Below, one piece after another: positions 4,601 to 63,855 of a stretch of 64,000 nucleotides of DNA. The notes below the pieces were generated by a model, which was not told where the DNA came from, searched no databases, and saw only the letters and a list, made by a program, of their open reading frames with translations. Each line of letters begins with the position of its first letter. Position 1 is the first letter of the stretch. The stretch spans positions 4,197 to 68,196 of the forward strand of contig JAFPWV010000061.1 in assembly GCA_017412675.1 (NCBI GenBank). Direction: 5' to 3'. Source of the DNA: Clostridia bacterium. GTDB taxonomy: Bacteria; Bacillota; Clostridia; Oscillospirales; CAG-272. The position numbers and the translations under genes were made by a program.

Positions 4601-4701
4601 GGGGAAAACGAAAATTTCCTGAATAAATATGAGGCGCACATGCATTTTCGGGCCATGCGCGCCTCTCGGTCATGCGATATCTGCGGGACCCGCTCCCGTC
4701 A

Positions 4702-6660
4702 TCAGAAGTAGATCGCCGGGATCTCTTCGGCGGGCTCGGCGTCGACGGGACGCTTCCCTTCTGCGATGTCATAGAGCTCGCGGTGCGTCTCGATGATCCC
4801 CGCTTCAAAGTCCTCGTACGGGCGCTGAGTCACGTCCACGATCCCGATCTGGTAGTTCTCGCCGTCGAAGCGTCCGAGATATGCCTGGTCGTTCAGGGTG
4901 AAGTAGTGCGCGCCGAGGCACATCGGATGCGAAGCCGCGCGCTGCATGTAGTAGCGGTAGGCGCGTCCGCGCTCCTTCTGGCTCGTCACGCCGCGGATCC
5001 CCGTCGCGTCGAGACCGCGGTCCAGCGCGCCGAAGTGGAATTCGCCGATCATCACGGGCTTGCCGACGAGGCGCGAGAAGCTCTCGATCGACGGAACAGG
5101 ATCCATCGAATAGCAGTTGAAGCTGAACACATCGGTGAACTCCGCGCCCGCGGCCAGCTCCTTCGAGGAGAGCCACGCGTACCGGATCCCGAGGTTGAGG
5201 TGGTCGGGATCGACCTCCCGGATCGCCTCGGACGGCACCCGGATGTATTCGCGGATCATCACCTCGGAGAACTCGCAGAGCGCCTGCTTCCCCGCCTCGG
5301 TAAAGCCGAAGGTCGACACCGGCCGGTCCATGTCCTCGAACGAGGCGTAATCCGAGCCCCATGCGGCGTTGAGGGCGTCGATCGAGCCGTACTTCTCCCG
5401 CATGAACGCGATGAGCGCGCGGCGGGAATAACTGGACTTCTCGCATTCGAGCGCGTAAGCCGCGATGTTGAGGTTGTTCACGAACGCCCACTGCGGTTCG
5501 TTGCCGAGGAAGTACCCGATGAGGGACGCCTTCCCGCGGTGCCGCTCCATCTGCCGCGCCCACTTCTTCGCGTTCTCCCGGAACTCCGGCGAGAGCGTGT
5601 CCGGGAAGTCGCGGAAGATATAGGTCTCCGTCTCCGGGTAGCCGTACAGGATCGTGACGTGCGGGATGTCGTATTCCTCGGCGAAATCGATGTCCGACCA
5701 GCACGCGACGGTGTTGAAACCCCACCGGATCATACGCCGCGCGGTCATTTCCTTCCATTTCCGGCCGTAGTCCTGCCCGAATACCCGCCAGAGGTTGTGA
5801 CGGTGCCACGAGAAGAAGTCCCGGCGCACCCAGCCGGCGGAGGCGGGATCGAGCTCGCCCGCGAGGGATCGGATCCCCGTGAGGTTGGCGTCGCCGTCGA
5901 TGTTCACGCAGTCGAGCCCCATGGAGAAGAACGCGTATCCGTCGGGATCGGCGAGGAGCCAGCGGTCCCGCCATTTTTCGAGAGTGAAGTATCCCGTGCC
6001 GTCCGTGAGCTTGAGGGAGAGATCCCCGCCCCAACACGAACGGCCGTCGTCCTCGCGTTTCGGTGCCGGCGCGTCGAGAACGGCGTGCATCCGGGCGGCC
6101 ATTTCTTCAAAGGATTTCGTCTTTCCGGGCCAGTCGGCGATGGCCTTCTGTCCCATTTCATCGACGAGGGTCCGCGTCTCGACCGGGAATTCCGGCTCCG
6201 CGTCATACACGCCGAAGGCCGCGATCTCGAAGGTCACGTCGTCCGGGGCGTCCGCGGAGGTGACGGTGAAGCGCACGGCGTCGTGATAATCGATCGGCGC
6301 GCCCTGCGTCACGGATTTCAGCTTGCCCGGCGTCCGCCTCAGGAAAAGGTTCTTTCCTTCCGCCACGGAGATCGGCAGGGCGATTCGGGTCTGGATCCCG
6401 GCGAGGACGCCCATCTTCACACCGCACATCCGGCCGTCGGCGGTCGAGAAGAACCACCCGAACACGGCGGAGCGCGCGCCCGTGCACCTCACGTCCATGG
6501 CGATCCAGCGGTCCCCGTCGAGCGGGATGCCGGAGAGCGCGCCGTCCTTCATCGGGACCGTCAGCCTGCCCTTCCCTTTCGGAAAGGTATAGAGGTTCCC
6601 GGAGACCGTCACGCCGTCCGGGGCGAGGGTTTCGAGGGGAATGGGGGTGTATCCGTTCAT
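4702..6660 (-). CDS. glycoside hydrolase, clan GH-A TIM-barrel (GH42/beta-galactosidase-like) with N-terminal beta-sandwich region
   Basis: 652 aa. LIGYFLGNEPQW (candidate acid/base Glu) and PVMIGEFHFGA (candidate nucleophile Glu) fit clan GH-A. AGGAG Shine-Dalgarno sequence upstream. Confidence 0.6.
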   Translation of the reverse strand: MNGYTPIPLETLAPDGVTVSGNLYTFPKGKGRLTVPMKDGALSGIPLDGDRWIAMDVRCTGARSAVFGWFFSTADGRMCGVKMGVLAGIQTRIALPISVAEGKNLFLRRTPGKLKSVTQGAPIDYHDAVRFTVTSADAPDDVTFEIAAFGVYDAEPEFPVETRTLVDEMGQKAIADWPGKTKSFEEMAARMHAVLDAPAPKREDDGRSCWGGDLSLKLTDGTGYFTLEKWRDRWLLADPDGYAFFSMGLDCVNIDGDANLTGIRSLAGELDPASAGWVRRDFFSWHRHNLWRVFGQDYGRKWKEMTARRMIRWGFNTVACWSDIDFAEEYDIPHVTILYGYPETETYIFRDFPDTLSPEFRENAKKWARQMERHRGKASLIGYFLGNEPQWAFVNNLNIAAYALECEKSSYSRRALIAFMREKYGSIDALNAAWGSDYASFEDMDRPVSTFGFTEAGKQALCEFSEVMIREYIRVPSEAIREVDPDHLNLGIRYAWLSSKELAAGAEFTDVFSFNCYSMDPVPSIESFSRLVGKPVMIGEFHFGALDRGLDATGIRGVTSQKERGRAYRYYMQRAASHPMCLGAHYFTLNDQAYLGRFDGENYQIGIVDVTQRPYEDFEAGIIETHRELYDIAEGKRPVDAEPAEEIPAIYF

Positions 6661-6699
6661 GATGACAGCTCCTTTTCTTCCGCCCGGCTCAGCCGGGGA

Positions 6700-7779
6700 T
6701 TACAGCTCGATCAGTTCCTTCTTCGGGCAGTCGGTGAGGTCGACGTGGCCGTCCTCGGTGACGAGCACCATGTCCTCGATCCGGCAGCCGTATTTGCCTT
6801 CGATGTAGATCCCGGGCTCGGAGGTGACGATCTGGCCCGGAAGCAGGACCATGTCGCCGGTGTGACCGTTCAGGCCCGGATCCTCGTGGATCTCCAGCCC
6901 GACGCCGTGGCCGAGACTGTGGCTGAAGCAGCCCTTGTAGCCGGCGTTGTCAATGATGTCCCGCGCGATCTTGTCCATGTCGGCGTTCTTCTTGCCGGGG
7001 CCGATCGCGTCGATGGCGGCTTCCTGCGCTTCGAGGACCGTGAAGTAGAGGCGCTTCATCTCCTCGTCCGCCTTCCCGATCGACACCGTGCGCGTCATGT
7101 CGGAGTGATAGCCGTTCACCATCGCGCCGTAGTCCATCGTGAGGAAGCCCTTTTCAAGCCGGATCGGGCGCGGCACGCCGTGCGGTCTCGACGACGCGGA
7201 GCCGGACACCGCGATGGTGTCGAACGACGGCTTCTGGCTGCCGTTCTTCTTCATGTAGTATTCGAGCTCCGCCGCGACCTCGGTCTCGGTCATGTCGTGC
7301 GTGAGGACTTTGCAGATATGTTGGAACGCGCCTTCCGCGATGCGCTGGGCGGCGATGATGTTCTCGACCTCGTCGGGCGTCTTGACCGAGCGGATCGATG
7401 TGAAGATGCCGCCGACGGGCACGAATTCCGGCTTTGCCTCGGCGAGCGTTTTTTTCAGGTGCTCGAGTCCCGCGCAGGTCAGTCTGCGGTCTTCATAGCC
7501 GATGACCTTGATGCCGCAGTCCTTCACGATCTCGAGCAGCCCCGGCTGACCGGGCAGGCAGACCGTGCAGAGATCCGTCGCCTCCGCCTTTGCCGCCTCG
7601 ATATAGCGGGAATCGGCGAAGACCCACGCCTTTTCACGGGTGACGAACGCATACCCGTCGGGGTTGTCGAAATCGGTCACATAGAGATGGTTCTCGGGGG
7701 AGCTCACATAGATCGCGTCAAGCCCCGCCTCCTCCATCTTCGCTCTCAGCTTCGCGTAGCGGTTTTCCATTTTGTTCAT
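6700..7779 (-). CDS. Xaa-Pro aminopeptidase/dipeptidase (peptidase M24B)
   Basis: Trimmed to MNKMENRYAKLR. Creatinase-like N-domain plus the HSLGHGVGLEIHEDP and EPGIY metal-ligand motifs of M24B. Confidence 0.85.
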   Translation of the reverse strand: MNKMENRYAKLRAKMEEAGLDAIYVSSPENHLYVTDFDNPDGYAFVTREKAWVFADSRYIEAAKAEATDLCTVCLPGQPGLLEIVKDCGIKVIGYEDRRLTCAGLEHLKKTLAEAKPEFVPVGGIFTSIRSVKTPDEVENIIAAQRIAEGAFQHICKVLTHDMTETEVAAELEYYMKKNGSQKPSFDTIAVSGSASSRPHGVPRPIRLEKGFLTMDYGAMVNGYHSDMTRTVSIGKADEEMKRLYFTVLEAQEAAIDAIGPGKKNADMDKIARDIIDNAGYKGCFSHSLGHGVGLEIHEDPGLNGHTGDMVLLPGQIVTSEPGIYIEGKYGCRIEDMVLVTEDGHVDLTDCPKKELIEL

Positions 7780-7793
7780 GAGATGATGTCCTT

Positions 7794-8639
7794 TCAAAAA
7801 GAAGATGTTCCTTGGATTTCGTCCTGGGTATGCGCGTCGATGTGCACGGACCACGCGGGATAGGGGACGGCCTGATGGGGGACGCGGTAAAACGATTCCC
7901 ACGAGCCGTCCTCCCGCACGATCAGCTCCCGCCAGCCGCGCCAGCAGGCGTACGGATCATGCTCGCCGCTGTAGCTGAAATGCCCGTCGTGCAGGATCGG
8001 CAGATCCCCCACGTCCGGACCGGTGCTGCCGACGAAGGACCGGTGGTCGTGGCCGCAGAAGAGCGCCCGGATCCGGGGATTTTCGCAGAGCACCGCCCGG
8101 AATTCGCCGCTTTCCCGCTCCATGTCGAACCAATGGGCGAGGAGAAAGATTGGCTGCTCCCCGGGCAGAGCGAGCGCCTCGCGGATGAGGGAGACGTTCA
8201 CCGGGAGATAGGTCCCGTCGCTGTTTTCCGTCGGTCCGAGATCGCCCGAGAACGCGTCGAGGAGCACGAACAAGGCCCAGTCCGTCCGGACGATCTGCTC
8301 CCGCGGCTGACGGGTGATCCGGAGCCAGTCCCCGGGCGCGTACTGCTCGTGGTTGCCGGGGGTGATGTAAAACGGCTGCGGGAAGGCGGGCATCACCTGT
8401 TCGATGAATTCCGCCGTGCGGCTGACGGGCGGGTCCCAGAGGTACGAGCCCCCCTCGTTGAACGCCCAGAAATCGAGCGAGACGTCCCCGAGGCAGAGGG
8501 TGAGATCGTAGTCCCGCGCGGCCTTCGCCTCCTCGAGGCAGCGGATGAGGTCGGCCATGCGCTCGCCGTTTGTCATCCGATACCAGGCCGCATGGCAGTT
8601 GTGAATGTCGGAGACGATCATAACGCGGTGTTCCTGCAT
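7794..8639 (-). CDS. metallophosphoesterase (calcineurin-like)
   Basis: Start MQEHRVMIVSDIH is preceded by AAAGGA. Motifs DIH, GDVSLD, GNHE and GHDH. Confidence 0.75.
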   Translation of the reverse strand: MQEHRVMIVSDIHNCHAAWYRMTNGERMADLIRCLEEAKAARDYDLTLCLGDVSLDFWAFNEGGSYLWDPPVSRTAEFIEQVMPAFPQPFYITPGNHEQYAPGDWLRITRQPREQIVRTDWALFVLLDAFSGDLGPTENSDGTYLPVNVSLIREALALPGEQPIFLLAHWFDMERESGEFRAVLCENPRIRALFCGHDHRSFVGSTGPDVGDLPILHDGHFSYSGEHDPYACWRGWRELIVREDGSWESFYRVPHQAVPYPAWSVHIDAHTQDEIQGTSSF

Positions 8640-26666: not shown

Positions 26667-26783
26667 AAGGCGCTGGGATTGCGGTGGATTAAAAACGATC
26701 GAAAAAAAACCTCCGGTTCCGGGAACTTTTTCCCGCGCCGCGGCGTCTAACGGGCAGAAAACAAAAACACCGAGAGGCCGACC

Positions 26784-27431
26784 ATGACCGGAAAACAGAA
26801 ATGCGCGATCCTCAAGGAGATCCGCCGCGACATCGCCGCGAAGAACGATATTTCCATCCGCATCGAGGAATGCACCCATAAGGGCGAATGCCGGGGGACC
26901 TGTCCGCGCTGCGAATCCGAGGTGAGGATCCTCGAGCGCGCGCTCGCCGAAAAGAAAAAGCGCGGGATCAAGACCGCGGTGGCCGGGATCTCCGCCGGGC
27001 TCCTCGCCGCCTCCCTCGCCTCCTGCGTCCCCGTTTCGGGCGAGCAGTTCGCGGGCGGCGGTCCCGAGACGGAAGGTCATGAGCTCGCGGGCGACATCGC
27101 GCCGGAGACGCTCGAAGCCGAACGCCTCGAGGGCGAGATCGCGATCGAGGATCCGATCATCGATCCGGACGACGGGACCTGCACGCCGCTCGAAGGAGAC
27201 GTCCTCGCGGATGATTACGAGGACTTCGAGCCGCTGATGGGCGAGCCGCCGGTCACGGATTACGAGGCCGAAGAGGAAGCGGATGTCGAATACGCGGGCG
27301 TACCGATGATCGAGGAGTATGAAGAGGACCTCGTCCCCTTCCACGACGAGTTCACCGACGCCAACGGGGAGCTTGCGGTGGTCGAGGGCATGATGGTCGC
27401 GCCCGACTGGACGGAAGAGGTCGAGCCGTGA
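26784..27431 (+). CDS. Cys-rich single-pass membrane protein with a highly acidic C-terminal region (unknown function)
   Basis: 215 aa. N-terminal C30-x5-C36-x3-C40-x2-C43 (plus C7 and H32). One TM helix (IKTAVAGISAGLLAASLASCV). The tail of ~130 aa is very rich in D/E. Its stop overlaps the downstream GTG start. Confidence 0.6.
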   Translation: MTGKQKCAILKEIRRDIAAKNDISIRIEECTHKGECRGTCPRCESEVRILERALAEKKKRGIKTAVAGISAGLLAASLASCVPVSGEQFAGGGPETEGHELAGDIAPETLEAERLEGEIAIEDPIIDPDDGTCTPLEGDVLADDYEDFEPLMGEPPVTDYEAEEEADVEYAGVPMIEEYEEDLVPFHDEFTDANGELAVVEGMMVAPDWTEEVEP

Positions 27432-28099
27432 CGAACGATGTGCCGACCTTCCGGGCGTTCGCGGTCTCGCGGCACCGGCTGATGTTCGACGGCGAAGGCG
27501 TGACGACCCTCGTCGGCGGGTACGGATGCCCGCTCGCCTGCCGGTGGTGCATCAACGGCGTCTGCACCGACCCGTCCTTCCGCCCGAAGATCTATACGGT
27601 TCCCTCGCTCTACGACACGTTGAAGATCGACAGCCTCTACTTCGAGGCGACGGGCGGGGGCGTGACCTTCGGCGGCGGCGAACCGCTCCTGCAGGCCCCG
27701 TTTCTCGCGGCGTTCATCCGGTACGCGAAGGAGATGGACGCCCCGTGGCGGTTCAATCTCGAGACCTCGCTCGCCGTGCCGCCCGCCCTCTTCGACGCGC
27801 TCATCCCCGAGGGGATCGCGGAGGCGGACTGCCCGATCGACGGATTCATCGTCGACGTCAAGGACATGGATCCCGCGATCTACGAGCGGTACACGAAGAG
27901 GCCGCAGGACGCGATGCGCCGGAATCTCAGCCGTCTCGCCGCGCTCTGTCCGGACCGCGTGACTGCGCGCGTGCCGCTCATCCCGGAGTACAACACGGAA
28001 GAGGACTGCGACCGCTCGGAGGCCGAACTCCGCGCGATTGGCTTTTCACACATCGACCGGTTCCGGTATGTGACGGAGCGTCCGTCCATGAAAAAATGA
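27428..28099 (+). CDS. radical SAM protein, PflA/NrdG-like activase family (small)
   Basis: 223 aa. CPLACRWC (Cx3Cx2C) near the N-terminus and the GGGEPLL SAM-binding motif. The GTG start lies inside a GTGA overlap with the upstream gene. Confidence 0.75.
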   Translation: MTNDVPTFRAFAVSRHRLMFDGEGVTTLVGGYGCPLACRWCINGVCTDPSFRPKIYTVPSLYDTLKIDSLYFEATGGGVTFGGGEPLLQAPFLAAFIRYAKEMDAPWRFNLETSLAVPPALFDALIPEGIAEADCPIDGFIVDVKDMDPAIYERYTKRPQDAMRRNLSRLAALCPDRVTARVPLIPEYNTEEDCDRSEAELRAIGFSHIDRFRYVTERPSMKK

Positions 28100-31716: not shown

Positions 31717-32553
31717 CTATTTTCTCACCCTTGCGCGGCGGAAGAGGGATGCCATGTCGGCGAGCGCGTCGGAGGTCTGCTTCCCAAGCGGGGGGAGGCC
31801 GAATTCCCGTCCGACGGAGGCGTATTTCGCGCCAGCCATCGCGTTGTAGGGTAAGAGCTCCACGGGCGAATCCCCCGCGAAATCGGCGATCGCCGCAAGG
31901 TTTTCGGGCGTGTCGGTGATGCCGGGGATGAGGGGCACGCGCAGCAGATACGGCTTGCCGCTCTCCATGAGCCAACGGAGATTCTCGAGGATCGTGCCGT
32001 TGTCCGCGCCGCAGAATTCCCGGTGCTGTGCCGCGTCGATGAACTTGACGTCCGCCATCACAAAAGCCATCGGCTCCACGGTCCGGCGGTAGACGTCCGG
32101 CGCGGCAAAGGAGGAGGTCTCGAGGGCCGAGGCGATCCCTCGTTCCCGGAGGAGTTCTGCCGTCTCCCGCACGAAATCCGCCTGCAAGAGCGGTTCCCCG
32201 CCGGAGAAGGTCGCCCCGCCGTCCTCCCCGAAGACGTCGGCATCCTGCGCGATCCGATCGGCCAGATCGGCGGACGTCCAGCGCTTCCCCGCGACGGAGA
32301 GGCATCCGTTCGGGCAGACGTGGAGGCAGCGTCCGAAGGGGCGGCATTCCGGGTGGGAGCACGGCTCGAAGCAGCGTCCGCAATGCGCGCAGCGGACGGT
32401 TTTGACACAGAGCTCGGGCTCCGGGGAGAGGCCTTCGGGATTGTGGCACCAGCGGCAGCGCAGCGGGCAGCCCTTGAGGAAGACGGTGGTGCGGATCCCC
32501 GGCCCGTCGTTTAGCGCGAAGCCCTTGATATCGAAGACCGTCCCGGATTCCAT
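31717..32553 (-). CDS. glycyl-radical enzyme activating protein (radical SAM with ferredoxin-like insert)
   Basis: 278 aa. CPLRCRWCHNPE (Cx3Cx2C), two extra Cys clusters (CAHCGRCFEPC, CLHVCPNGC) and GGEPLL. No GRE gene is adjacent. Confidence 0.85.
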   Translation of the reverse strand: MESGTVFDIKGFALNDGPGIRTTVFLKGCPLRCRWCHNPEGLSPEPELCVKTVRCAHCGRCFEPCSHPECRPFGRCLHVCPNGCLSVAGKRWTSADLADRIAQDADVFGEDGGATFSGGEPLLQADFVRETAELLRERGIASALETSSFAAPDVYRRTVEPMAFVMADVKFIDAAQHREFCGADNGTILENLRWLMESGKPYLLRVPLIPGITDTPENLAAIADFAGDSPVELLPYNAMAGAKYASVGREFGLPPLGKQTSDALADMASLFRRARVRK

Positions 32554-32742: not shown

Positions 32743-32824
32743 GGGGGAATTCCCGAGTGGCCAAAGGGGACAGACTGTAAATCTGCTGGCACCGCCTTCG
32801 GTGGTTCGAATCCACCTTCCCCCA
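32743..32824 (+). tRNA. tRNA-Tyr (anticodon GTA at 32777-32779), type II with long variable arm, no encoded CCA
   Basis: Acceptor GGGGGAA/TTCCCCC, D-arm CCCGAGTGGCCAAAGGG, anticodon loop CTGTAAA, variable stem GGC/GCC, T-arm GGTGG-TTCGAAT-CCACC. Closely parallels E. coli tRNA-Tyr. Confidence 0.9.
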
Positions 32825-53657: not shown

Positions 53658-53821
53658 AATGGGTCACCTCTTCGTGAGTGAATGCCGGCTTCCTGCCGTC
53701 CTGCTTCTGATTATAGCACACCGCGCGGCGGCGAATCAATTCTTTTTGCGCAAATTCGTCCGCGGATTTGTAAGTTTATTTTGAACGCGGGCCCCCGCGC
53801 GTCAATCTTCGCCCCCGCCCC

Positions 53822-53850
53822 TTGACAAACCGGCAAAAAAAGGGTATCAT
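53822..53850 (+). promoter_or_regulatory. SigA-type promoter
   Basis: TTGACA, 17 nt, TATCAT. Confidence 0.55.
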
Positions 53851-53890
53851 AGAGGGCGAACATCAAATCCAACCCCGAAAGGAAACGTCC

Positions 53891-56842
53891 ATGGCTGAAA
53901 TCAAATGCTACGCGGATCTCGCGCCGAACAAGGCCTACGAGCTCCTCTACGAGGAAACCCTCGACGACATCAAGTCCGCCGGGATCGTGCTGCGGCACAA
54001 AAAATCCGGCGCGCGCGTCTGCATCCTCCCGAACGACGACGAAAACAAGCTCTTCTGCGCCGCCTTCCGCACCCCGCCGGAGGATTCCACGGGCGTGTGC
54101 CACATCATCGAGCACACCGTCCTCTGCGGCTCGAAGAACTTCCCCTCCCGCGATCCCTTCATGCAGCTCGCGAAGGGCTCCCTCAACACCTTCCTCAACG
54201 CGATGACCTACCCGGACAAGACCCTCTATCCGGTGGCGTCCTGCAACGACAAGGACTTCAAGAACCTGATGAACGTCTACATGGACGCGGTCTTCTATCC
54301 GAACATCTACAAGTACCGCCAGATCTTCATGCAGGAGGGCTGGCACTACGAGCTCGACAACCCGGAGGACGCGCTCAAGATCAACGGCGTCGTGTATTCC
54401 GAGATGAAGGGCGCGATGTCCTCTCCCGACCGGGCCGTGTGGGACGAGCTCAGCACCGCGCTCCTCCCCGACACGACCTACGGCGTCAACTCCGGCGGCG
54501 ATCCAGACGTCATCCCGGACCTGACCTACGAATACTACCTGAACTTCCACCGGAACCACTACCATCCGTCCAACGCCTACATCTTCCTCTACGGCAACTG
54601 CGACATGAACGAGCGCCTTGCCTGGATGGACGAGAACTATCTCTCCTCCTTCGACGCGATCGAGCCGCACTCCGAGGTGAAGCCCCAGCCGCGCTTCGGC
54701 TCGAAGGAACCGCGCCGCGTCGTATCGCACTATTCCGTGGGCGTGAACGACGAGACCGAGGGCAAGGCGTTCCTCGCGTATGGCGCACTCGGCGGATCGA
54801 ACCTCGACGTCCTCGACTGCCGCGCCTGGAACATCCTCTCCTCCGTGCTCCTGAACGACGACGGCGCGCCCGTGAAGAAGGCGCTGACCGACGCGGGCAT
54901 CGGCGAGGACATCTACGGCGGGTACGACTCCCACATGATCGAGGACGCCTTCGCCGTCATCGCAAAGAACGCGAAGGCCGAGGACCTCGACCGGTTCTAC
55001 ACGATCATCCTCGACACCCTCCGCGCCGAGGTGGAAAAGGGCATCAACGAAAAGGCCCTGCTCGCGGCGATCAACATCCGCGAATTCCACTTCCGTGAAG
55101 CCGATTACGGCGGATATCCGCGCGGCCTCGACGTGGCGTCCGACATGCTCCAGTCCTGGCTCTACGACGAAGACGGCGCCTTCACCTATATGCACGTCCT
55201 CGACGACTTCGCGGAACTGAAGCGCCGCATCGGCACGGGCTACTACGAGGACCTCGTGCGCCGCGTGATCCTCGATTCCGAGCACGCCGTTCTCTTGACT
55301 CTTCTCCCCGAGCCGGGCCTCGTCGACCGCAAGAACGAAGAACTCGCCGAAAAGCTCGCCGCCTACAAGGCCTCCCTCACGCCCGCCGAGGTGGACGCGA
55401 TCGTCGAGGATACGACGGCGCTCCGGGAATACCAGTCCCATGAGCCGACGGAAGAGGAGCTGAACTGCATCCCGTCGCTGAAGCGCGAGGATATCTCGAA
55501 GGACACCATCCCCTTCTACAACGAAGAGCGCACCGTCGGCGGCGTGAAGACGGTCTTCCACCCGGTCGAGACCAACGGCATCACCTACGCCGGTCTCTAC
55601 TTCGACATCGGCAAGCTCCCGCACCGGTATGTCCCGTACCTCGGGCTGCTCGGCCACATCCTCGGCCGCGTCGATACGGACGAACACACCTATGACGAGC
55701 TGACGATCAACATCCGCCTCAACCTCGGCAGCCTGTCCTTCTGGCCGTCGACGCCGCGGAAGTTCGGCACCCTCGACGACTACCGCCCGATGTTTGCGAT
55801 CCACACGAAGGCCCTCGCCGAGAACATCCCGTTCGCGCTCGAGACCGCCCTCGAGATCGCCCGCGGAACGAAGTTCACCGACACCGCGCGGCTGAAGACC
55901 ATCATCGCCGAGCTGAAATCCGACCGTCAGCGCGCCATCATGTCGAACGGCAACTCCGTGGCGTCGGCCCGCGCGCGTTCCTACTACTCGAAATACGACT
56001 GCTATGATCAGGCCCTGAACGGCCTCGACTTCTACTTCTTCGTCAAGGACCTCGCGGACAACTTCGACGAGAGGAAGGCAGCCCTCTCCGAGAACCTCGC
56101 GAAGGTCGCGGCGGCCGTCTTCGATCCGAAGAACGTCGTGCTCTCCCTCGCGGCGGACGAAGCGGGCATCGAAGCGATCGACAAAAACCTCCCCGCGCTC
56201 ATCGAAGGGCTCCGTGCCATCCCGCGCGAACCTCTCGGCGAGGCGGAGGAATACGTCCCCGTCAAGAAGAACGAGGGCATCCTCATCCCGTCGCAGGTGC
56301 AGTACGTCGCCCGCGTCGGCAACCTCGGCTTCGACGGTCTCGCCTACAACGGCGCGCTGCAGGTCGTCAAGACGGCGGTCAACACCGACTGGCTTTACCA
56401 GCAGATCCGCGTCAAGGGCGGCGCGTACGGCTGCGGATGCGGCTTCGGCGGCGCGACCGGCAACGTGACCTTCTCCTCCTACCGCGACCCGAAGCTGACG
56501 GAGACCGACGAGGTCTACAAGGGCACCGGGAACTGGGTGAAGAACGCGAAGTTCGACGAGGCGGAGCTGACGAAGTACATCATCGGCACGTTCTCGGGCT
56601 ACGAGCGTCCCATGTCCCCCGCGGGCAAGGCGAGCCGTTCCTTCGACGCATGGCTCACGGGCCGCACCTATGCGGATGTCGTGAAGGAGCGCGAACAGAT
56701 GCTCTCGATCACCGCGGAAGAGTTCCACGCGTCCGCCGAGATCTTCGACAAGATCTGCGCGCAGGGCTATCTCTGCGCCGTCGGCAGTGAAAAGACCCTC
56801 CGGGACCATGCCGAGATGTTTGACAACCTTGTGAATATCTGA
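53891..56842 (+). CDS. M16C insulinase-family metallopeptidase (PreP/Cym1-like)
   Basis: 983 aa from MAEIKCYADL. Inverted zinc motif HIIEHTVLCGS (HxxEH). Four-domain length typical of M16C. Confidence 0.85.
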   Translation: MAEIKCYADLAPNKAYELLYEETLDDIKSAGIVLRHKKSGARVCILPNDDENKLFCAAFRTPPEDSTGVCHIIEHTVLCGSKNFPSRDPFMQLAKGSLNTFLNAMTYPDKTLYPVASCNDKDFKNLMNVYMDAVFYPNIYKYRQIFMQEGWHYELDNPEDALKINGVVYSEMKGAMSSPDRAVWDELSTALLPDTTYGVNSGGDPDVIPDLTYEYYLNFHRNHYHPSNAYIFLYGNCDMNERLAWMDENYLSSFDAIEPHSEVKPQPRFGSKEPRRVVSHYSVGVNDETEGKAFLAYGALGGSNLDVLDCRAWNILSSVLLNDDGAPVKKALTDAGIGEDIYGGYDSHMIEDAFAVIAKNAKAEDLDRFYTIILDTLRAEVEKGINEKALLAAINIREFHFREADYGGYPRGLDVASDMLQSWLYDEDGAFTYMHVLDDFAELKRRIGTGYYEDLVRRVILDSEHAVLLTLLPEPGLVDRKNEELAEKLAAYKASLTPAEVDAIVEDTTALREYQSHEPTEEELNCIPSLKREDISKDTIPFYNEERTVGGVKTVFHPVETNGITYAGLYFDIGKLPHRYVPYLGLLGHILGRVDTDEHTYDELTINIRLNLGSLSFWPSTPRKFGTLDDYRPMFAIHTKALAENIPFALETALEIARGTKFTDTARLKTIIAELKSDRQRAIMSNGNSVASARARSYYSKYDCYDQALNGLDFYFFVKDLADNFDERKAALSENLAKVAAAVFDPKNVVLSLAADEAGIEAIDKNLPALIEGLRAIPREPLGEAEEYVPVKKNEGILIPSQVQYVARVGNLGFDGLAYNGALQVVKTAVNTDWLYQQIRVKGGAYGCGCGFGGATGNVTFSSYRDPKLTETDEVYKGTGNWVKNAKFDEAELTKYIIGTFSGYERPMSPAGKASRSFDAWLTGRTYADVVKEREQMLSITAEEFHASAEIFDKICAQGYLCAVGSEKTLRDHAEMFDNLVNI

Positions 56843-61554: not shown

Positions 61555-63726
61555 TCATCCGACCGCGTGTTCTTCAAGCCAGGCCTCGAGGTCGTAATTC
61601 TCGCGGAAATAGTCGAGCGTATAGTCCGGGTTGAGGGTCTCCTCCCAGACGCAGACCGTCTCGTCCCCGATCGAGGAGAAAGCCTCCCGGAGACAGGCCG
61701 CGAGATACGCCGCCTTGCGCTGTATCGGTTCCCCGGCGAAGTACCCTGGCAGATCGTATTTCCACGCGGTGGCGAGGTTCTCGAAGATCCGGGCCATGTC
61801 CTCGGTCGGGTAGGTCATCGAATACCCGTCGACGAAGTAGATGCCGTCGGGATCGCTGCCCTCTTCCCAGTACTGCCCGTTGAGCCCGTTGTCATCCCAG
61901 TTGTAGGTATTCCCGTCCTCGTCCGTGTAGACGTAGCGGTATTCAAAATCGTCGGGGTTGAACATGCTCCAGCGGCTGAACTCTTCGAGATCGCGCTCCC
62001 AGCCGATATGGTACACCGTGTTCTCGAAGACGTGCATGAACTCGTGCGCGACGGTCTTGTCGATCCCGCTCTGGTTGATGTCGAAGACGGCCAGCTCGAT
62101 CCCGTTCGTCTCCGTCGTGAACGCGGTCGCGTCGCTGATGGAATTGCGGTTGTCGCGCTCGGGGATGATCCGCCCGGTCAGGCAGATGTCGAGGCTCGAA
62201 TAATACGACACGACCTCCTTCATGAAGCCCTCCGGGAGATGGGCGAAGAACGCCCCGAGCTCCTCGAGCGCGCGGTGGATCAGGCTCTCGTCCGTCTCCG
62301 GCAGGACCGCGTATCCGACCATGTACCGCACGGCATCGGTCCCCGTGTAGACCGTGACGCCGTATTCCTCGTACAGCGCCTCGATCAGGGCCTGATTCTC
62401 CTGTTCGCCGCCGTCGCGTTCGAGCAGATCGAAGCCGATCCGCCCGTCGCCCTCTTCATCCGCCTCCCAGCGGCAGAAGGACGACACCCCTTCTCTCTCG
62501 TAGAAGAAATACGCGTCGCCGTTCCAGTCCCGGACACCGTACACATAAGCGTAGCTGTCCTCCGGCACGGGCAGGCTGACCGCATCGACGCGCAGTCCGC
62601 TGTCCGGGTCGAACCGGAAGATGGAGATGTGATCCTCGGTGTCGTTCAGGAAATAGAGGTGGGACGAATCGGGATCCGGCCAGCTGAGGTAGCAGGCTTC
62701 CGGCACCGCGATCGAGAGGCAGGCTTCCGGCCGCGCGGGATCGTAGAGACGGACCTCCGCCTTCGTGTAATCGCTCTCGATCAGATAACCGCCGCAGACG
62801 CTCAGGTTGTAGCCGGGCCCGTTGAACAGCGTGACGCTTCCGTCCGTGAGGGAGTAGACCCCGCAGCAGGAGTCGTAGGTCTCGCTCGAATAGCAGGACA
62901 CGAGCAGGAGATCGTCGCTGAGCGCCGCGGAGATATCGATCTCGTCACAGCGGTCGGGCAGCGAAACGGGGAGCGCGTGGAACGAAAACGTGCCGTCCTC
63001 GGCGAGCACCGCGTCCCGGAAGCCGGTCAGACCGCCCGAGAAGGCGAGCCGGTCCGGAGCAAGGAGGGTCGCGCCGTAGATCGAGTCGTCCGGCAGGGGG
63101 GTGAGCGTCCCGGTACAGAGCGTCTCGTCGAGCGCGCAGAGTGCATGACGGCCGCAGTCGAAGATCACGGGGCGCCCGTCCATCAGAAAGAGCAAAAACC
63201 CGTATCCGTAGTAATCCTCCTCGTCGCCGTACTCGAAATCATACCGCCCCACGGTGACGGTGCGGGTCTCCAGATCGACGAGCGCGAGGTCCGCGCAGAG
63301 GGGATCCTCCCAGGTGCTGCCGACGAGGACATACCCGTTTTCGATGTTCGACACAGTCTCCGGCATGAACGGGAGGCAGATCGCCCGGACATCCTCGGTC
63401 AGCGGGGTATAGAATTCCTCCTCGGCATACACCCGGACGTTGTCGGGCAGCGCGGGCTCCGGCGGCTCCGTCTCAGGCGCTTCCGTTTCTGGGATCTCGG
63501 TCTCGGGGATCTCGGTCTCCGGCGGCTCCGTCTCAGGCGCTTCCGTTTCTGGGATCTCGGTCTCGGGGATCTCGGTCTCCGGGGTCTCGGTCTCGGACGC
63601 TTCCGTCTCCGGCCGCTCTGGGACCGTCACCGGTTCGATCCTCCGGATATGGGGGATGCCGCAGCCCGTCACCGCGGTGAGCAGCGCAAGCAGGACGGCG
63701 GCCCGTCCGATGTGCCGTTTCATCAT
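61555..63726 (-). CDS. large lipoprotein with PETE-repeat linker and a C-terminal HExxH (putative zinc metallopeptidase) domain
   Basis: Start MMKRHIGR follows GGAGGAAC. Lipobox AVTGC. Contains (PETEx)n, a Cys-rich central region and VAHEFMHVFEN. Confidence 0.65.
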   Translation of the reverse strand: MMKRHIGRAAVLLALLTAVTGCGIPHIRRIEPVTVPERPETEASETETPETEIPETEIPETEAPETEPPETEIPETEIPETEAPETEPPEPALPDNVRVYAEEEFYTPLTEDVRAICLPFMPETVSNIENGYVLVGSTWEDPLCADLALVDLETRTVTVGRYDFEYGDEEDYYGYGFLLFLMDGRPVIFDCGRHALCALDETLCTGTLTPLPDDSIYGATLLAPDRLAFSGGLTGFRDAVLAEDGTFSFHALPVSLPDRCDEIDISAALSDDLLLVSCYSSETYDSCCGVYSLTDGSVTLFNGPGYNLSVCGGYLIESDYTKAEVRLYDPARPEACLSIAVPEACYLSWPDPDSSHLYFLNDTEDHISIFRFDPDSGLRVDAVSLPVPEDSYAYVYGVRDWNGDAYFFYEREGVSSFCRWEADEEGDGRIGFDLLERDGGEQENQALIEALYEEYGVTVYTGTDAVRYMVGYAVLPETDESLIHRALEELGAFFAHLPEGFMKEVVSYYSSLDICLTGRIIPERDNRNSISDATAFTTETNGIELAVFDINQSGIDKTVAHEFMHVFENTVYHIGWERDLEEFSRWSMFNPDDFEYRYVYTDEDGNTYNWDDNGLNGQYWEEGSDPDGIYFVDGYSMTYPTEDMARIFENLATAWKYDLPGYFAGEPIQRKAAYLAACLREAFSSIGDETVCVWEETLNPDYTLDYFRENYDLEAWLEEHAVG
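63457..63576. repeat. perfect 60-bp tandem duplication inside the lipoprotein gene
   Basis: 63457-63516 and 63517-63576 are identical by eye. Each encodes PETEIPETEIPETEAPETEP and is built from 12-bp subrepeats. Confidence 0.85.
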
Positions 63727-63855
63727 CGTTCCTCCGTTTTTTCTCATCTTGTTGCTTCTATCATACCACATCCCGGCGGTTTTTCCATCGCTAATCTTAG
63801 CATAAAACGCCGGATCCGCCGCGGCAAAAGGAAAAACAGGGCTGGAACCCTGTTC

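Follow-up and report, generated by a model that had tools for sequence, protein, structure and literature searches.

To our knowledge, virtually the only known role of minimal radical S-adenosylmethionine (SAM) enzymes of the PflA type is that of activases for glycyl radical enzymes. Such activases have an N-terminal DGxGxR loop, and one small activase, NrdG, acts on the class III ribonucleotide reductase NrdD, in which the glycine loop lies beside a Cys4 metal site in a terminal domain. Among exported proteins, bufferins and oxazolins are Cys-containing precursors with Sec signal peptides, some of them protein-sized, that are modified by multinuclear non-heme iron-dependent oxidases (MNIO), and for about 16% of the Buf2 bufferins a lipoprotein signal peptide is predicted (PMC12452194). 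Here we analyze two adjacent genes, open reading frame (ORF) A and ORF B, in a 64,000-nucleotide (nt) stretch of the genome of a Clostridia bacterium (Oscillospirales, CAG-272; assembly GCA_017412675.1, contig JAFPWV010000061.1, positions 4,197 to 68,196), hereafter the window. ORF B is a minimal PflA-like radical SAM enzyme, and ORF A is a protein with a Cys-rich N-terminal domain (hereafter the head), a hydrophobic segment and an acidic tail. The two genes are paired in Clostridia and Bacteroidales, and they might constitute an enzyme-substrate module in which ORF B acts on the head.

A gene pair shared by two phyla

The first-pass annotation of the window, made from the nucleotide sequence alone, described ORF A and ORF B as a translationally coupled pair, and both the coordinates and the GTGA overlap of the two genes hold (Table 1). 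Profile searches with both proteins, which that annotation had advised, identified ORF B as PflA-like and the head as a large unannotated family. In a scan of one genome per species, at least 587 genomes were found to carry the head; these belong to Clostridia (Ruminococcus, Flemingiibacterium, Lachnospiraceae, Oscillospiraceae and Acutalibacteraceae) and Bacteroidales (Paludibacteraceae, Limimorpha and others), and most are metagenome-assembled genomes (MAGs) from rumen and gut. Among the best 80 head loci, each from a species genome, 68 encode an ORF B homologue at a distance of at most 6 kb, and in 66 of the best 80 metagenome loci found through ORF B, human-gut contigs included, the head adjoins the ORF B homologue on the same strand. 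The pairing is far beyond chance and is kept across two phyla, so the concern that the two genes might not be neighbours elsewhere does not hold.

In Clostridia, the gene order is always A then B. The 4-nt overlap is present in 18 of the 48 loci with this order, the genes being a few to about 60 nt apart in the others, and five independent contig look-ups, through two ORF A homologues (P0107 and P0054), two ORF B homologues (P0172 and P0179) and P0212, each recovered the pair with a 4-nt overlap; at the P0212 locus, a gene of the ORF A family lies upstream of the ORF B homologue. All-against-all clustering of the neighbouring ORFs showed that only A and B are common to the lineages, and for a conserved third gene this clustering yielded lineage-specific synteny only, formed by the genes for DUF5723 and a 510-aa lipoprotein in one group of Bacteroidales.

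The ORF B homologues of Bacteroidales are 43-47% identical to ORF B of the window and those of Lachnospiraceae 40-47%; the heads of the two phyla share 55-64% identity. Because the Bacteroidales enzymes are as similar to the window ORF B as those of Lachnospiraceae, these values suggest that the module may have been transferred between gut phyla.

The head domain and the probable export signal of ORF A

In the AlphaFold2 (AF2) model, the head consists of a helix (residues 3-20), a Cys/Gly loop (21-40) and a helix that starts at residue 41 and runs into the hydrophobic segment. ORF A contains the cysteines C7 and C30-x5-C36-x3-C40-x2-C43, and this spacing, already noted in the first-pass annotation together with Cys7, is essentially invariant in 148 diverse members of the head family: C30, C40, C43, G34 and G38 are each present in all 148 and C36 in 147. 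The positions invariant throughout this set are G3, C7, L10, N21, C30, G34, G38, C40, P41, C43 and E51. His32, which had been listed as a further feature, varies among H, Y and F (108, 30 and 10 members, respectively). Overall, the first ~85 residues of ORF A are strongly conserved, the isoelectric point (pI) of the head is about 9.2-9.5, and the five invariant cysteines probably hold a metal or Fe-S centre.

A search of 1.84 billion representative proteins with the head profile retrieved 2,887 clusters (50% identity) with E<=1e-3, of which 2,409 reach E<=1e-10, and the matches nearly always begin at residue 1 of the matched protein. All 294 word-indexed homologues of ORF A are unnamed or 'hypothetical', and the exact ORF A sequence is itself deposited under the label hypothetical protein. 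ORF A has no match in Pfam or NCBIfam at E<=1 and none in PADLOC, and neither a sequence nor a fold match to the head was found in the PDB. A search of the full-text literature for a pairing of this type returned no description, in line with the initial impression that the architecture had not been described.

The division of ORF A into a head, a single transmembrane helix and a D/E-rich tail stands with respect to the two outer parts; the presumed transmembrane helix resembles, in its features, the signal-peptide core of lipoproteins. In the family, this hydrophobic core has a median length of 17 amino acids (aa), is directly preceded by a K/R-rich stretch and contains a conserved small-xxx-small motif (G68...G72). 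In ORF A, it ends in AGLLAA-SL-A-S-C81, which conforms to the PROSITE lipobox core pattern (PS51257-type: {DERK}(6)-[LIVMFWSTAG](2)-[LIVMFYSTAGCQ]-[AGS]-C after a K/R-containing n-region), as do 121 of the 148 family members. The residue after the core is Cys in 147 of the 148 proteins of this set, which come mostly from Clostridia, and in the Bacteroidales paralogues this position is occupied by a lipobox or else by an AxA-type site (e.g. VALA-QQ). Judging by these sequence features, the segment most likely serves as the core of a cleavable Sec/lipoprotein signal peptide and not as a plain membrane anchor, and the head would therefore be an N-terminal extension of a signal peptide; ORF A would then be cleaved and lipidated. 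The lipobox Cys of lipoproteins usually lies within about the first 35 residues; owing to the 60-residue head, that of ORF A lies outside this range, at residue 81, an unusual feature.

The tail of ORF A contains 33% D+E and 10% Pro, with a net charge of -43 and a pI of 4.05. Its block-mean predicted local distance difference test (pLDDT) score in the AF2 model is 47-74, with no helix or strand element called, and the tails are poorly conserved across the family in both length and sequence. A short motif, [LIVMF]xG[DE][LIVMP], recurs in them: a script found four copies in ORF A (LAGDI, LEGEI, LEGDV and LMGEP), and in 120 tails there are 191 occurrences versus 22.4 expected from shuffled sequences, an 8.5-fold enrichment, with the motif present in 101 of the 120 tails and seen in both phyla. 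The acidic tail is a variable linker with a conserved LxG[DE][VIM] motif, and in Bacteroidales TonB_C domains take its place or are added to it.

A distinct subfamily of PflA-like enzymes

ORF B matches PF04055 (47.1 bits against a cut-off of 29.5) and PF13353, which places it in the radical SAM superfamily and bears out the two motifs recognized in the first-pass annotation, CPLACRWC (residues 34-41) and GGGEPLL (82-88), the latter a putative SAM-binding motif of the superfamily. A profile built from 53 homologues retrieved Escherichia coli PflA (3c8f) from the PDB with E 8.8e-25 over residues 16-201. The AF2 model of ORF B has a pLDDT of 93.5, and its best Foldseek match is 3cb8_A (E 3.5e-14, TM 0.77, root mean square deviation 2.6 A), that is, PflA bound to SAM and a peptide substrate, with QueE and viperin-like enzymes trailing far behind. 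D21, G22, G24 and T26 are invariant in the 53 homologues.

The assignment of ORF B to the glycyl-radical-activase type is therefore sound with respect to PflA homology and fold, and its best NCBIfam models are those of activases, with TIGR02494 in the lead, but the scores are below the cut-offs (102.7 vs 174.35 bits for TIGR02494; 63.7 vs 231.75 for TIGR02493) and in the loci with neighbours examined no cognate glycyl radical enzyme is encoded beside ORF B or its homologues. The members of the ORF B family are about 200-240 aa long, and the three cluster cysteines are their only conserved ones, so that no auxiliary cluster is expected. Comparison with models of SPASM/twitch maturases (PapB, QhpD and others) gave E-values of 0.004-0.6, which does not place ORF B among them, and the protein has neither an extra domain nor the ferredoxin-like insert of TIGR02494 members. 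Given the scores below the curated cut-offs, the lack of an auxiliary cluster or extra domain and the DGxGxT form of the loop, ORF B represents a separate subfamily of radical SAM enzymes that are minimal and PflA-like.

One locus (L139, 1175-3804, + strand) encodes an ORF B homologue of 310 aa with an N-terminal extension and no head nearby; upstream of it are a 422-aa radical SAM gene (motif CNLRCSYC) and several small unknown ORFs. This homologue may represent a divergent use of the enzyme.

Arrays of head-bearing genes in Bacteroidales

In Bacteroidales, a single B gene is followed by one to seven tandem head-bearing genes. The proteins encoded in these arrays have only the head and the signal-peptide core in common, and their C-terminal regions differ in length and domains. 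TonB_C (PF03544) was detected above the cut-off in 6 of 9 family members tested and just below it in a seventh, all seven being Bacteroidales paralogues, with E-values down to 1e-21; some also have a CarboxypepD_reg-like domain. By comparison, TonB_C matches only 2 of the 148 members of the mostly Clostridia set, and ORF A of the window has neither TonB_C nor any other Pfam match. Between heads of the same array, the proportion of synonymous differences (pS) is 0.40-0.69 and that of nonsynonymous differences (pN) about 0.05, i.e. the proteins are nearly identical and the synonymous sites near saturation, which indicates that each head copy is kept by purifying selection and not by recent gene conversion.

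An arrangement in which one B gene is followed by many genes with nothing but an N-terminal module in common is what one expects of a processing enzyme with its substrates, and it is at odds with the head being a tether or redox partner. Of the roles first considered for the head, that of a partner or substrate of the enzyme is accordingly supported by the conserved neighbourhood and the arrays; that of a membrane tether fits poorly with up to seven heads per enzyme.

More than one head-bearing gene also occurs outside these arrays. In a Clostridia MAG (locus L001), a second, shorter head-bearing gene (7668-7982, + strand, 104 aa) lies immediately 5' of the A gene, so A duplication is not confined to Bacteroidales; two A copies are also present in L047 and L148.

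The Bacteroidales arrays have neighbours of their own. In 18 of the 20 loci with the B-then-A order (e.g. L019 1455-4411, L024, L042 and L054), a gene for a 510-aa lipoprotein without a Pfam match lies directly 5' of B, and in the same 18 loci it is followed, with a 4-nt overlap, by a gene for a DUF5723 outer-membrane beta-barrel protein. This arrangement suggests that the lipoprotein, DUF5723 and TonB_C-bearing A genes form one operon. Both the lipoprotein and the DUF5723 genes are missing from L068 and L078, and the association may be a case of lineage-specific synteny.

Other neighbouring genes

In several Clostridia lineages whose other neighbours differ, a gene for the thiamine transporter ThiT (Thia_YuaJ) is found just 3' of B (L001 9131-9866, L004 9238-10069, L090 4732-5524 and L088 4950-5513). 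Scanning of three of these loci with Rfam (L001, L004 and L090) revealed a thiamine pyrophosphate (TPP) riboswitch between B and ThiT, which implies that ThiT is regulated separately. We considered ThiT as a part of the module and rejected it, since it has a riboswitch of its own and neither the window nor the majority of loci contain it. In Flemingiibacterium-type loci, a gene for a 155-aa protein without a Pfam match lies directly 5' of A (L004 7426-7893, + strand), and the same family is found in six loci; the C-terminus of the L004 protein is an extreme Cys/Asp run, DCLDECDCDDDDCDCCCDDDDCDCCCDE, that is possibly metal-binding.

The features of the pair in the window are collected in Table 1. 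The GTG start of ORF B is supported by the conservation among homologues of R15 and R17, which precede the next Met. A scan for promoters and terminators around the pair was uninformative, and a scan for a riboswitch 5' of ORF A found none.

Table 1. Position and main properties of ORF A, ORF B and their sequence elements in the window.
Feature	Position	Strand	Remarks
ORF A	26784..27431	+	ATG start, 215 aa; Cys-rich head, signal-peptide-like core with lipobox, acidic disordered tail
ORF B	27428..28099	+	GTG start, 223 aa; minimal PflA-like radical SAM enzyme
GTGA start/stop overlap of ORF A and ORF B	27428..27431	+	4 nt
Shine-Dalgarno-like GAGAGG	26772..26777	+	6 nt 5' of ORF A ATG; read directly from the sequence
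Shine-Dalgarno-like GGAAGAGG	27413..27420	+	Within the 3' end of ORF A, 7 nt 5' of ORF B GTG; read directly from the sequence
ORF A head, residues 1-63	26784..26972	+	Basic, predicted cytoplasmic; AF2 pLDDT 83-94 over residues 1-60
Cys/Gly loop of the head, C30-THKG34E-C36-RG38T-C40-PR-C43	26871..26912	+	Putative metal site; proposed (inferred) target of ORF B
Hydrophobic core of ORF A, residues 64-80, ending in lipobox L-A-S-C81	26973..27026	+	Cys present in 147/148
ORF A tail, residues 82-215	27027..27428	+	Acidic, Pro-containing, disordered, predicted extracytoplasmic
First [LIVMF]xG[DE][LIVMP] copy, L101-A-G103-D-I105	27084..27098	+	G103 conserved in 141/148
ORF B loop D21-G-E-G-V-T26	27488..27505	+	Aligns to PflA VDGPGIR; counterpart of the activase N-terminal DGxGxR
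ORF B radical SAM [4Fe-4S] motif C34-PLA-C38-RW-C41	27527..27550	+	C34, C38 and C41 invariant in 53 homologues
ORF B glycine-rich motif G82-GGEPLL88	27671..27691	+	G82-E85 invariant; aligned to PflA SGGEAIL segment (GGGVTASGGEA)

Elsewhere in the window, a second radical SAM gene (31717-32553, - strand, 278 aa), 3.6 kb from ORF B, encodes a canonical glycyl-radical-enzyme activase (TIGR02494, 248.1 bits vs the cut-off of 174.35) with a Cys-rich ferredoxin-like insert; no glycyl radical enzyme is encoded beside it, and a tRNA-Tyr gene (32743-32824) is located nearby. The first-pass annotation overlooked this activase; its statement that the 64 kb lack a glycyl radical enzyme holds for the large ORFs that were scanned, which are not all ORFs of the window, and in these there is no Gly_radical or PFL-like domain and no convincing fingerprint. 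Three very long ORFs of the window, at 4672-7863 (+), 53711-56809 (-) and 61555-63771 (-), with 1063, 1032 and 738 aa, respectively, match no Pfam family at E<=1e-5; ORFs on the opposite strand overlap in this high-GC sequence (G+C content of the window, ~62%), so that either strand may be the coding one.

A possible mechanism and its alternatives

We tentatively favour, at somewhat below an even chance, the interpretation of ORF A and ORF B as an enzyme-substrate module in which ORF B acts on the Cys/Gly loop of the cytoplasmic head before or during export. Under this scenario, ORF A would be made as a pre-protein with a folded, basic cytoplasmic domain of ~60 residues ahead of a Sec-type signal peptide, and its acidic disordered segment would be exported and probably lipid-anchored at the lipobox Cys. 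ORF B would dock on the head in the cytoplasm, where its 5'-deoxyadenosyl radical would take a hydrogen atom from the loop that C30 and C43 clamp, with G34, C36 and G38 as candidate sites; this would leave either a radical on the protein or a one-off covalent modification, for instance a crosslink. The head so modified would stay at the cytoplasmic face of the membrane, either in the pre-protein or as a remnant after signal peptidase cleavage. In Bacteroidales, the same head precedes families of TonB_C-domain proteins, which would all be served by one B gene.

Several lines of evidence point in this direction. The head is placed in the cytoplasm because K/R-rich residues precede the hydrophobic core, the tail is acidic and the TonB_C domains lie across the core; the cytoplasm is also the compartment in which a radical SAM enzyme has to operate. 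Action of ORF B on a protein loop is proposed because the enzyme is homologous to PflA over its full length, has substrate-bound 3cb8 as its best structural match, keeps the DGxG loop and has no extra domain or extra conserved Cys; the type of enzyme that it resembles is the one well-studied radical SAM class with direct action on a folded protein's loop. The confidently predicted fold of the head, with an exposed 20-residue loop that carries invariant Cys and Gly residues, argues that this domain is accessible to ORF B, and the persistent adjacency of A and B in two phyla despite the changed gene order argues that the two are enzyme and partner. The basic pI of the head and the pI of ORF B, about 5.7, lend weak support to an interaction.

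Other observations weigh against the proposed module. The head is absent within 3 kb of B in 14 of the 80 B loci, and B is missing from about 11 A loci, several of them at contig ends and one (L028) a clear Clostridia case; the unlinked A or B loci are mostly from Bacteroidales, where the two genes evidently can sit apart. The Arg of the activase DGxGxR loop is Thr in all 53 aligned ORF B homologues, the sequence of the head loop does not conform to the glycyl-radical fingerprint R-[IVT]-[CSA]-G-[YFW], and a 60-residue helical hairpin is a poor shelter for a stable glycyl radical. The radical SAM enzymes known to form thioethers have auxiliary clusters, which are missing from ORF B. The chemistry as a whole is something we infer, and the head is not the sole constrained element of ORF A, since the extracytoplasmic LxG[DE][VIM] motif is constrained as well.

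This motif is central to an alternative that we consider improbable, namely, that the head is a leader-like docking domain, that ORF B modifies the glycine of LxG[DE][VIM] prior to translocation and that signal peptidase then removes the leader, in the manner of peptides that are synthesized ribosomally and modified post-translationally (RiPPs) and whose signal peptide doubles as the leader. The strong enrichment of the motif, its presence in most tails and in both phyla and the near-invariance of its central Gly, the type of residue attacked by PflA-like enzymes, are all compatible with this possibility, and bufferins offer a precedent for RiPP precursors with Sec signal peptides (PMC12452194). 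However, 19 of the 120 copies lack the motif, among them B-linked array paralogues (L043:3459 and L042:5992), the motif may be a mere repeat unit of an acidic, proline-rich linker, and the five invariant cysteines would be left unexplained in a mere docking domain. In another alternative, the head is a metal or Fe-S partner of ORF B, serving as a tether, electron donor or auxiliary cluster provided in trans, with another protein, a lipid or a small molecule as the substrate: the invariant Cx3Cx2C and two further Cys could bind a [4Fe-4S] cluster, the ferredoxin-like insert of the window's canonical activase is missing from ORF B, and the 4-nt overlap in 18 of 48 loci is of a kind often seen for subunits of complexes. 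Moreover, one source names a close ORF A homologue 'ferredoxin'. We rejected the identification of the head as a ferredoxin as such, given that it has Cx5Cx3CPxC rather than CxxCxxCxxxCP and no match in Pfam, NCBIfam or the PDB. Up to seven heads on different exported proteins per B gene are hard to explain by a partner role, and no conserved gene is a candidate for the third-party substrate; this alternative, too, appears unlikely.

Two further explanations have very little probability, and both were rejected on the results of the family searches. An ordinary activase whose glycyl radical enzyme is encoded elsewhere, with the adjacency of A devoid of functional meaning, would account for the activase models being the best NCBIfam matches and for the PflA-like fold of ORF B, but not for scores below every curated cut-off, nor for an adjacency that is held across two phyla despite the change in gene order; besides, no glycyl radical enzyme is found beside B in the loci with neighbours examined, where A is the neighbour, and the window already encodes a canonical activase. 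Equally remote is the notion of ORF A as an anti-sigma factor of the zinc-binding type, or as some other regulator tethered to the membrane, that is released by intramembrane proteolysis and is unrelated to the chemistry of ORF B. ORF A superficially resembles such proteins in its small cytoplasmic Cys-rich N-terminal domain, single hydrophobic segment and variable ectodomain, and the remnant of a signal peptide could serve as substrate for a site-2 protease; yet there is no match to zf-HC2 (PF13490) or any other Pfam family at E<=1, the His is variable, and no sigma-factor gene is conserved beside the pair, the extracytoplasmic function (ECF) sigma gene of L068 being on the opposite strand with one gene between. 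The first-pass annotation had named a characterized family of this kind as the finding that would count against a link between the two genes, and none emerged. The remaining probability belongs to mechanisms beyond the enzyme-substrate module and these four alternatives.

A broader generalization of the enzyme-substrate module is conceivable but doubtful: the head could be a new N-terminal processing signal, a folded metal-binding extension of Sec and lipoprotein signal peptides that many unrelated exported proteins share and on which a dedicated minimal radical SAM enzyme carries out a chemical modification or a radical activation. If so, cytoplasmic radical chemistry would be coupled to the export, anchoring or fate of surface proteins in strict anaerobes, and the signal-peptide remnant, once modified, might be the functional product in its own right. 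The location of the head in front of a signal peptide, on lipoproteins and TonB_C proteins alike, suggests a previously unrecognized link of radical or metal chemistry to the biogenesis of envelope proteins. With a large cross-phylum subfamily tied to a small Cys-rich domain, the PflA-like enzymes would gain a substrate class not known for them before and probably a new chemistry as well. The partner family is large and unannotated, with 2,887 clusters and at least 587 species genomes of Clostridia and Bacteroidales from the rumen, animal gut and human gut, and because the system consists of two genes, it is directly testable by co-expression.

Relation to known systems

ORF B shares with PflA (3c8f/3cb8) and the TIGR02493/TIGR02494 activases the partial TIM-barrel, the CX3CX2C and GGGE motifs and the DGxG loop, as well as the small size and the lack of a substrate-recognition domain, which implies that the enzyme acts directly on its protein substrate, at a loop. 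Unlike the activases, ORF B has as its neighbour a ~60-residue Cys-rich domain, not a glycyl radical enzyme with an RVxG[YF] loop, scores below the family cut-offs, has Thr in place of the Arg of DGxGxR and lacks the ferredoxin-like insert of TIGR02494. The action of NrdG on NrdD can be regarded as a precedent for a metal-clamped loop that is offered to a PflA-like enzyme. The glycine loop of NrdD, however, is part of a large catalytic barrel in which the radical is sheltered, whereas the head is a free-standing domain of 60 residues on a signal peptide, and there is no sequence similarity between the two.

In the loci of SCIFF/ranthipeptides, sactipeptides and QhpD-QhpC, as in the loci described here, a radical SAM gene lies beside one or several genes for Cys-rich substrates, with tandem substrates per enzyme. 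The maturases of these systems differ from the single-cluster B enzymes of 205-223 aa in their SPASM/twitch domains with auxiliary clusters and in their length of 320-450 aa, and their substrates (SCIFF, sactipeptides, QhpC) are short, with a conserved leader and a Cys-rich core, whereas here the Cys-rich part is the conserved N-terminal domain of exported proteins of 120-450 aa. Anti-sigma factors with zf-HC2 domains likewise combine a small cytoplasmic Cys-containing N-terminal domain with one membrane segment that follows it, but ORF A does not match their profile, its His is variable, and the gene that is kept beside it encodes a radical SAM enzyme rather than a sigma factor. Most of the Bacteroidales members tested resemble TonB in having an N-terminal membrane segment, an acidic Pro-rich linker and a C-terminal TonB_C domain; they differ from TonB in the addition of the 60-residue Cys-rich head and a lipobox or AxA site, and the Clostridia members, including ORF A, are without TonB_C.

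The nearest conceptual analogue is the bufferins, in which a cytoplasmic enzyme is likewise paired with precursors that have Sec signal peptides (PMC12452194). That enzyme is an MNIO with a DUF2063 partner, and the modified cysteines of bufferins are in the exported part of the protein, not ahead of the signal peptide (PMC12452194). Thus, a radical SAM enzyme with a dedicated protein substrate would be a system of a known kind, whereas a folded, Cys-rich extension of a signal peptide would be an unprecedented context for such a substrate.

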